A DNA stretch of 64,000 nucleotides from Escherichia phage CMSTMSU. Position numbers and translations under genes: made by a program. Positions 8,734-8,814 of this stretch are shown here, piece after piece. Position 1 is the stretch's first letter. Every line of letters begins with the position of its first letter. Location: the sequence record MH494197.1. One strand, written 5' to 3'. The notes below the pieces were generated by a model, which did not search any database, was not told the DNA's origin, and saw nothing but the letters and a program-made list of their open reading frames with translations.

Positions 8734-8814
8734 TGGCCGGGCGACAGGACTCGAACCTGCATACTCCAGTTACTCGATTAACGACGATTTAGAAGACCGT
8801 TGAGATACGCCCGG
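8734..8814 (-). ncRNA. tRNA-like element / degenerate tRNA (Ser-tRNA paralog lacking D-arm; anticodon-like loop CUUCUAA)
   Basis: Perfect acceptor CCGGGCG/CGCCCGG and T-arm with loop TTCGAGT; anticodon stem-loop ACGGU-CUUCUAA-AUCGU starts at nt 15 so no D-arm; 4 nt after tRNA-Ser(UGA). Confidence 0.45.

Follow-up and report, generated by a model that had tools for sequence, protein, structure and literature searches.

A tRNA-like element downstream of tRNA-Ser(UGA) in phage CMSTMSU

We examined a 64,000-nucleotide (nt) stretch of DNA from Escherichia phage CMSTMSU (MH494197.1), here called the window, and in it an 81-nt element on the minus strand (8734-8814) that resembles a transfer RNA (tRNA) with an unusual core. 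The source phage is an Asteriusvirus, a jumbo coliphage of the 121Q/PBECO4 type. The six tRNA genes called by ARAGORN in the window share the minus strand and lie from 4.7 to 8.9 kb; the last of them is a canonical tRNA-Ser(UGA) with an encoded CCA (8819-8908, minus; 61.7 bits against the Rfam tRNA model), which is the upstream neighbour of the element in the same orientation. The original prediction, made from the sequence alone, had placed the element 4 nt after this gene, and the spacer AAAU (8818-8815) does separate the tRNA from the element start at 8814. Directly upstream of tRNA-Ser(UGA) a promoter-like site matches the consensus (TTGGAA, an 18-nt spacer and a TG-extended TATAAT; 8919-8948, minus) and could give rise to a transcript of tRNA-Ser, the element and the small open reading frame (ORF) that follows; the number of promoter-like sites in this region is no higher than the shuffled expectation.

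The element reads CCGGGCG UA UCUC A ACGGU CUUCUAA AUCGU CGUUAAUCGAGUAACUGGAGUAU GCAGG UUCGAGU CCUGU CGCCCGG C CA, and all of its parts described here lie on the minus strand. The 5' strand of the acceptor stem, CCGGGCG (nt 1-7, 8808-8814), pairs perfectly with the 3' strand CGCCCGG (nt 72-78, 8737-8743), and the T arm GCAGG UUCGAGU CCUGU (nt 55-71, 8744-8760) has a stem of five base pairs (bp), including one G-U, and a loop that fits the canonical UUCRANY; the perfect 7-bp acceptor stem and canonical T arm reported previously are therefore both present. After the connector U8 A9 U10 (8805-8807) comes the trinucleotide CUC (nt 11-13, 8802-8804), and the anticodon arm ACGGU CUUCUAA AUCGU occupies nt 15-31 (8784-8800), with a 5-bp stem, a 7-nt loop carrying U33 and purine 37 as in canonical tRNA, and the anticodon UCU at 8791-8793. 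With only 7 nt between the acceptor and anticodon stems, there is no local D hairpin at nt 10-25. The anticodon and T arms are 23 nt apart, and this interval holds an 8-nt linker on the 3' side of the anticodon stem (CGUUAAUC, nt 32-39, 8776-8783), the trinucleotide GAG (nt 40-42, 8773-8775), and U43, a D-loop-like segment AACUGGAGUA and U54 (8761-8772). The 3' tail C-CA (8734-8736) consists of a C in the discriminator position, then CA, then A, so that CCA is out of register; the relatives have G followed by CCA.

Standard tools barely register the element. The Rfam tRNA model (RF00005) matches 8736-8814 on the minus strand with 30.1 bits, barely above the gathering score of 29 (E = 0.0028), and replaces 15 D-arm model positions by 4 nt; the Rfam models gave nothing on the element besides this weak match, and ARAGORN run on the window does not call it. 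Annotation of the site is inconsistent: 121Q labels it tRNA-Leu(taa), Nernie and REP12 label it tRNA-OTHER, and most Asteriusvirus records give it no label, while the Felix O1 copy is unannotated and partly covered by the call of an HNH endonuclease coding sequence (sites KM507819 73585-73666, NC_005282 ~25951-26029 and PP925835 31322-31400). The tRNA-Leu(UAA) reading was rejected, as no 5-bp stem can be formed around any UAA (best 3/5 pairs), and a manual search of nt 32-54 for a second anticodon-like hairpin found no 5-bp stem.

The element belongs to a family of phage RNAs with covarying helices

A short BLAST match led to the Kuravirus podophages HC-25922 and TH42, which carry the same RNA with wholly different but compensating acceptor and anticodon stems. 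Sensitive BLAST searches gave matches in Streptomyces phages and in myophages of the Felixounavirus, rV5-like and Mydovirus groups; coverage of the element query is 80% or more in 246 GenBank phage records, and two pattern scans of IMG/VR (scans 1 and 2) yielded further members. The family RNA, here called subfamily 1, is 79 nt long, and covariation was assessed in a gapless alignment of 49 distinct sequences. In this alignment 94.8% of the cells are paired, against 64.1 +/- 1.0% in shuffles. Of 21 pairs tested, 19 have changed on both sides, and the structure collapses once partners are moved out of register by 1-3 columns. All seven acceptor pairs covary (99.4% paired), as do all five pairs of the anticodon stem and four of the five in the T stem (99.2% paired). 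The window copy has every family feature and scores 96.5 bits against the family model, of which its own sequence is a part.

Several unpaired positions are also constant. The connector U8 A9 U10, which the second scan pattern left free, is the same in 49/49 distinct sequences. U8 A9 U10 C11 and the linker CGUUAAYC are invariant in subfamily 1 and present in the window copy; the first six linker bases, CGUUAA, were fixed in both scan patterns, and their invariance is a matter of ascertainment. Every family member found has the same stretch from U43 to U54, most positions of which were fixed in scan 2.

The original prediction had offered a decaying duplicate of tRNA-Ser(UGA) as one possibility. 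Conservation in several unrelated groups of phages, together with compensatory changes in each helix, rules this out. As noted there, the anticodon arm is nearly identical to the tRNA-Ser arm: two anticodon bases differ, and one G-C pair of the stem is G-U here. The label of tRNA-Ser paralog is not supported, as only this arm is alike, and in seven other phages it does not match that of the local tRNA-Ser(UGA). Several distinct family members on unrelated contigs also have the stem ACGGU/ACCGU, and the match in the window can be put down to chance or to a local conversion event; gene conversion with tRNA-Ser as a general feature was rejected, as it is not seen in other phages.

A scan of 185,579 species genomes with the subfamily 1 pattern returned only four matches, all of them contigs of metagenome-assembled genomes; subfamily 1 is therefore essentially confined to phages, and a bacterial origin was discarded on the same result. 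The family covariance model and a third scan, whose pattern required the D-loop motif near the T arm, uncovered a larger sister subfamily with a linker of 3-5 nt (NGAAA). The scan gave at least 120 matches, and the class is bigger than sampled. The IMG/VR loci of the sister subfamily run from L132 to L250, with examples such as L164, L105 (5506-5582), L103 (2689-2763) and L116 (13348-13426), and its anticodons are either of Ile type (UAU, GAU and CAU, with U after GG and A73) or of Arg type (UCU, ACG and CCU, with A after GG). Members of the rV5 type have an acceptor stem and T arm that resemble the canonical tRNA-Arg(UCU) of T5 and BF23, a likeness that points to descent from an ordinary phage tRNA-Arg.

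Two individual hits deserve mention. A covariance-model match at L055 (9-84), which looked like a D-armless tRNA-Ser(UGA), proved to be a normal tRNA-Ser clipped by the start of the locus. A cropped family copy lies at L025 (6111-6183, minus), where the first ~47 nt, through GUAAUU, are intact and the T arm and acceptor 3' strand have been swapped for unrelated sequence; in contrast to the others, this is a truly decayed copy.

A D-like stem encloses the anticodon arm and suggests a block-swapped core

The element had been described as lacking a D arm, with a 23-nt variable region. The length of that region stands, but not its label: it forms no variable-arm hairpin by minimum free energy (MFE) folding or RNAalifold, and it houses the 3' strand of a D-like stem and the D-loop-like segment. 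The stem is formed by nt 11-13 (CUC) and nt 40-42 (GAG) and encloses the anticodon hairpin; it covaries and is retained, so that the term D-arm-less does not apply. It is 100% paired in the 49 distinct sequences, through eight combinations (CUC/GAG, CGC/GCG, CAC/GUG, CUU/AAG, CGG/CCG, CAG/CUG, CAU/AUG and CGU/ACG). Pair 12-41 is UA in 34 sequences, AU in eight and GC in seven, and pair 13-40 is CG in 40, GC in five and UA in four, with none unpaired. Double-change cells number 24, compared with 4.3 +/- 1.6 in shuffles, and shifted registers are only 9-40% paired. Across at least 118 distinct members of the wider class there are 14 combinations, and in the sister subfamily, where no D-stem filter was applied, all three pairs form in 71 of 86 members among the matches listed. 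A fourth pair, 14-39, was rejected, being paired in only 9/49 sequences.

The 11 nucleotides that follow U43 after this stem, A44 A45 Y U G48 G49 A50 G U A53 and then U54, are D-loop-like and abut the T stem; the canonical tRNA allele found at the same site in relatives has the D-loop AAUUGGAUA for comparison. A segment U-A-A-Y-U-G-G-N that ends 3-5 nt before the T stem is one of the features by which we define the class, and in the window it is present as UAACUGGAGUAU-GCAGG.

These features suggest a mapping onto canonical tRNA numbering. Element nt 40-43 would correspond to canonical positions 10-13, with GAG equivalent to 10-12, and nt 44-53 to positions 14-21, namely A14, A15, Y16, U17, G18, G19, A20 (window 8765), 20a, 20b and A21, while nt 54 would take the place of position 48. 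On the other side, nt 10-13 would be positions 22-25 (CUC being 23-25), nt 14 position 26, nt 15-31 positions 27-43, and nt 32-39 the strand of the variable loop. Under this mapping all pairs are canonical, 13-40 being 25-10, 12-41 being 24-11, 11-42 being 23-12, and U10.U43 being 22.13. The block 10-21, with the 5' strand of the D-stem and the D-loop, would now lie 3' of the block 22-47, which holds the 3' strand of the D-stem, nt 26, the anticodon arm and the variable-loop linker. Strand polarity would be kept, as would the continuities from 13 to 14 and from 25 through 26 to 27, and three junctions only would be altered: 9 to 22, 43 through the linker to 10, and 21 to 48. In yeast tRNA-Phe, A9 lies in the groove of the D-stem, residues 44 and 45 lie beside pair 10-25, and A21 adjoins the layer of pairs 8-14 and 15-48. 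Since the three new junctions would join neighbours in the L-shape with polarity kept, the arrangement would amount to a block swap, that is, a non-circular permutation, and an L-shape would still be possible. The contacts U8-A14-A21 and A15-U48 and the docking of G18/G19 on the T loop would be retained.

In a heuristic test that supports the block swap, we reversed the proposed permutation by moving nt 40-53 to directly after A9 and running ARAGORN on the product. A tRNA-Arg was called in 49/49 of these sequences, and in 37/49 when the score threshold was raised to 115%; at that threshold three control rearrangements gave 0-1/49 and the native order 0/49. The raised thresholds and additional controls were used because a wrong rearrangement had given 39/49 at the default threshold. 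The swapped chain order proposed for the D-stem and D-loop would explain why gene finders miss the class.

Anticodon and identity bases are coupled across the class

We tabulated the identity bases of at least 118 distinct members of the proposed block-swapped architecture from both subfamilies; the counts in this section and the next two are among the matches listed. Arg-type members number 79 (UCU 65, ACG 10, CCU 3, UCG 1) and Ile-type members 39 (UAU 30, GAU 8, CAU 1), and no other anticodon occurs. The base after GG, which scans 1 and 3 left free, is A in 79/79 Arg-type members and U in 38/39 Ile-type members, and the discriminator is A in 39/39 of the Ile type and mostly G or A in the Arg type. 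All Arg-type members have C35, and the UCU of the window gives C35 and U36. The bacterial identity set for Arg consists of A20, C35, U/G36 and A/G73, and that for Ile includes U20 and A73 (PMC9976931). The base after GG and the discriminator match these sets, the former agreeing with the position-20 determinants of bacterial arginyl- and isoleucyl-tRNA synthetases (ArgRS and IleRS). The A after GG at window position 8765 may occupy the spatial position of A20. Coupling of the anticodon to distant identity bases is expected of RNAs that are charged by synthetases, and not of a decoy or a processing signal.

The element and canonical tRNA-Arg(UCU) share a genomic slot in two phage genera

The element is present in 23 listed Asteriusvirus records, duplicate RefSeq and GenBank entries included. 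Two other members of the genus, UE-S1 and G17, carry a canonical 77-nt tRNA-Arg(UCU) at the element site, with the same flanks and unrelated internal sequence, and a tRNA-Arg is annotated at the site in slurp01, Sharanji, JP4 and ph0011. Unrelated internal sequence between conserved flanks indicates allelic replacement, not an indel or an assembly artefact; a normal tRNA in relatives differing only by an indel, which had been raised as a possible refutation, is thus not what is found, as the normal tRNA-Arg(UCU) of these relatives is no indel variant. The 121Q tRNA cluster contains no second tRNA-Arg.

Similar exchanges are seen elsewhere. The Kuraviruses HC-25922 and TH42 carry the element together with a 3' remnant of the canonical tRNA-Arg(UCU) known from YF01, and SU7 has a third, canonical allele at the tRNA-Arg slot. 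Published work on these phages gives them a single tRNA, tRNA-Arg(TCT), in line with their AGA use, and notes AGA enrichment (PMC9965538). At locus L005 (HC-25922) the remnant, consisting of the T arm, acceptor strand and CCA, lies at ~1437-1475 (minus) beside the inserted element, and the recombination joints seem to use a shared GGAGGGTT motif (T stem or ribosome-binding site). Felix O1 has 25 tRNAs by ARAGORN, with Arg represented only by Arg(ACG); its element lies between Ile(GAU) and Ser(UGA), where the listing for its relative Sf14 has Arg(TCT). In large tRNA arrays the anticodon of the element usually complements the canonical Arg set: L059 has canonical GCG, UCG and CCU with a UCU element, and L105 has canonical UCU and ACG with a UCG element.

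The 3' end of the window copy

Aligned with 121Q and Turkey3, the window copy has C in place of TG at its 3' end, which makes the acceptor stem perfect, turns the discriminator into C and shifts CCA out of register; a G-C pair of the 121Q anticodon stem is G-U in the window. The TG-to-C change occurs in none of the other Asteriusvirus element records (23 listed rows). The discriminator of the 65 UCU members is G in 42, A in 20, U in two and C in one, the single C being that of the window (8736), where the Arg identity set has A73 or G73. The 3' change may be a sequencing error in a run of G.

Many family members encode no CCA, and the host CCA-adding enzyme must therefore serve the family. At L033, L014, L053, L012 and L039, and with a mismatch at L005 and L055, no CCA is encoded and a leader/trailer helix of 12-14 bp extends the acceptor stem directly; other family members have G or A followed by CCA and lack this helix, which may be a sign of processing by another route or a trace left by a mobile cassette.

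Proposed function and alternative explanations

We consider it probable that the element is the gene for a block-swapped, non-circularly permuted tRNA-Arg(UCU), a member of a conserved phage class that standard finders have missed or mislabelled; a non-canonical tRNA with an Arg anticodon was also among the suggestions of the original prediction, and in that respect it is supported. The RNA would be transcribed together with tRNA-Ser and then excised by RNase P and 3' nucleases, its CCA end would be added or repaired, and host ArgRS would charge it, the equivalent of A20, the main ArgRS determinant, still being presented with C35 and U36. It would then read AGA, and perhaps AGG, on the ribosome; phages of the 121Q type would have no other tRNA for AGA. 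The AGA codon is rare in E. coli. On the further claim, that this is the first natural tRNA class with a non-circularly permuted fold, L-shaped, ribosome-competent and charged by host ArgRS (IleRS in the sisters) through a relocated position-20 base, our judgement is evenly balanced.

A number of observations weigh against this interpretation. The single-sequence MFE of the element (-23 kcal/mol) is unexceptional, with z = -1.21 against shuffles, and the MFE fold breaks the T arm; it is for this reason that the homologues, and not the single sequence, carry the evidential weight. RNAalifold recovers the three long helices from the family alignment and does not predict the 3-bp D-like stem, whose basis is the covariation counts alone. 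In subfamily 1, CGUUAA and GGAGUAUG look invariant in large part through ascertainment by the scan patterns, and the tertiary mapping draws on invariant bases, which are unable to covary, and on the heuristic ARAGORN test. Canonical and rearranged genes are not always alternatives: L053 has a canonical tRNA-Arg(UCU) (1522-1598, minus) beside a family member (1614-1692, minus) that is also UCU, the sole exception seen. AGA enrichment in the window is modest: in ORFs of 150 amino acids (aa) or more, AGA makes up 12% of Arg codons (4.4 per 1000). The C discriminator and the absence of an in-register CCA could lower or abolish the activity of the window copy, and it is comparative evidence alone that suggests expression, processing, charging and decoding.

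The element might instead be conserved as a tRNA-like RNA that undergoes tRNA processing and takes no part in decoding, for example a decoy or sponge for a host nuclease that targets tRNAs or for a modification enzyme, or processing punctuation for the mRNA of the downstream small ORF, which starts 22 nt after the element. The unusual topology might not suit the ribosome or EF-Tu, some members have the long leader-trailer helices and no CCA, and phage tRNAs are known to counter anticodon nucleases, as outlined in PMC10264068, PMC11464382 and PMC11555353. Such an RNA would, however, have no need for a position-20 base and discriminator that track the amino acid (A in 79/79 Arg; U in 38/39 and A73 in 39/39 Ile, among the matches listed), for displacement of a canonical tRNA-Arg(UCU) from the same slot, or for complementation of the canonical anticodons in arrays, and we regard this explanation as unlikely. 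We think it similarly improbable, and if anything slightly more so, that the family is functional and the window copy a crippled allele in which the TG-to-C change has removed the G discriminator and shifted CCA. The change is unique to the window among the Asteriusvirus records, A/G73 belongs to the bacterial Arg identity set, and no other UCU member listed has a C discriminator; but the same change converts a G-U pair to G-C and gives a perfect 7-bp stem, host addition or repair must be normal given the many members without CCA, position 73 is a weaker determinant, the remainder of the gene is intact at 96.5 bits (with the window part of the model), and the change may be a homopolymer sequencing error.

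Decay of a tRNA-Ser(UGA) duplicate, or misassembly of a normal tRNA, would account for the 17-nt anticodon arm being nearly identical to the one 4 nt upstream. This explanation, to which we give almost no credence, is refuted by the recurrence of the architecture, with compensatory changes throughout its helices, in unrelated phages, by the difference between the family and tRNA-Ser arms in other phages and the dissimilarity of the remaining parts to tRNA-Ser, and by the canonical tRNA at the site in relatives, which has unrelated sequence and is not an indel variant.

Neighbouring genes and other tRNA-like loci

Downstream of the element the window contains two tandem paralogous 54-aa ORFs (8387-8712, minus), both starting MTHEEWMNDINFRYSGIG; the first is the small ORF that begins 22 nt past the element. 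The pair may be followed by a third, degenerate copy at 8227-8376, and 121Q, Turkey3 and G17 have three of these 165-nt ORFs. At the other end of the tRNA cluster, a tandem pair of tRNA-Thr(UGU) genes is separated by 6 nt (4697-4850, minus), and the sequences of the two have diverged (73.9 and 73.8 bits); the 121Q cluster has a single annotated tRNA-Thr(UGU).

Two further types of tRNA-like locus were encountered. Directly downstream of the tRNA-Arg slot in the Kuraviruses HC-25922 (L005, 1315-1429, minus) and YF01 (L124, 441-555, plus) lies a conserved 115-nt tRNA-like candidate. Its first bases are GGGCUAG UA UGGG; at the 3' end it has a T arm (UCUGG UUCGAUU CCAGA), the 3' strand of an acceptor stem and ACCA. 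The two copies differ at two positions, and the candidate has no ARAGORN call and no Rfam match at E <= 1. At L113 (4163-4256, minus), L116 (6269-6364, plus) and L075 (1612-1702, plus) lie tRNA-Ile(UAU) genes 91-96 nt in length, in which a normal D arm is combined with a long, class-II-like variable arm, a separate oddity among the AUA-reading tRNAs of phages.

Comparison with known tRNA variants and implications

The element shares much with canonical tRNA-Arg(UCU), as found in T5 and BF23, in the UE-S1/G17 allele and in E. coli argU: a 7-bp acceptor stem, a T arm GCAGG UUCGARU CCUGY and the anticodon loop CUUCUAA, and, for the class, C35, U36, the GGA motif, mostly a G or A discriminator with CCA, and the same genomic slot. 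It differs in having no local D hairpin at nt 10-25, in that the D-like stem encloses the anticodon arm, and in the position of the D-loop-like segment directly before the T arm. At first sight it also recalls the D-armless mitochondrial tRNA-Ser(AGY/AGN), with no D hairpin and an anticodon stem soon after the acceptor. The D-armless mitochondrial tRNAs have lost the D-stem and D-loop, are flexible, and in some cases need an adapted EF-Tu; they include the Ascaris mitochondrial tRNA-Ser(UCU), whose likeness to the element in its UCU is a coincidence (PMC7609411, PMC4013460). Unlike these, the element keeps a covarying D-like stem, the GG segment and a full canonical T loop, and its hosts are ordinary bacteria with standard factors.

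A non-standard order of segments is also known from the circularly permuted tRNA genes of Cyanidioschyzon merolae, in which the 3' half precedes the 5' half and a circular intermediate restores the standard tRNA (Soma, as cited in PMC10085705). The element, in contrast, has its 5' and 3' acceptor strands at the normal ends and two internal blocks swapped, and because no simple processing route restores the standard order, the mature RNA itself would be permuted. The closest concept is that of the hairpin and hammerhead ribozymes, which have natural non-circular permutations (Weinberg laboratory, NAR 2023, PMC10085705), and according to that paper none had previously been known in natural RNAs; as in those ribozymes, internal blocks of the element are re-ordered and the three-dimensional positions of the conserved parts would be kept. 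That paper mentions tRNA only for the case with a circular intermediate. Allo-tRNAs and other non-canonical cloverleaves, which are unusual tRNAs too, came from the mining of genomes, metagenomes and phages (PMC5389517, PMC7609411), but they have 8/4 or 9/3 acceptor/T branches, whereas the element has the standard 7/5 and an altered connectivity of the D-domain instead. We found no published description of this tRNA structure in the literature on non-canonical, permuted and phage tRNAs, on phiEco32 and on Asteriusvirus, most subscription journals lying outside this coverage.

If these RNAs are active, the core of the tRNA fold can be re-wired in a way not previously described, which would bear on how synthetases, RNase P, EF-Tu and the ribosome recognise the shape of a tRNA and not its chain order, on tRNA evolution, and on the design of orthogonal tRNAs. 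Hundreds of sequenced phages, among them Felix O1, rV5-like phages and 121Q/PBECO4 jumbo phages, have the element unannotated, overlapped by an ORF or mislabelled, and phage tRNA counts and analyses of AGA and AUA codon usage are therefore biased. If the interpretation as a block-swapped tRNA is true, the spread of the class in unrelated phages and its displacement of canonical tRNA-Arg(UCU) would suggest an advantage specific to infection; our guess is that the topology might evade a host factor that recognises the normal D-arm. The repeated displacement of canonical tRNA-Arg(UCU) provides a natural pair of alleles with which the purpose of phage tRNAs becomes testable.

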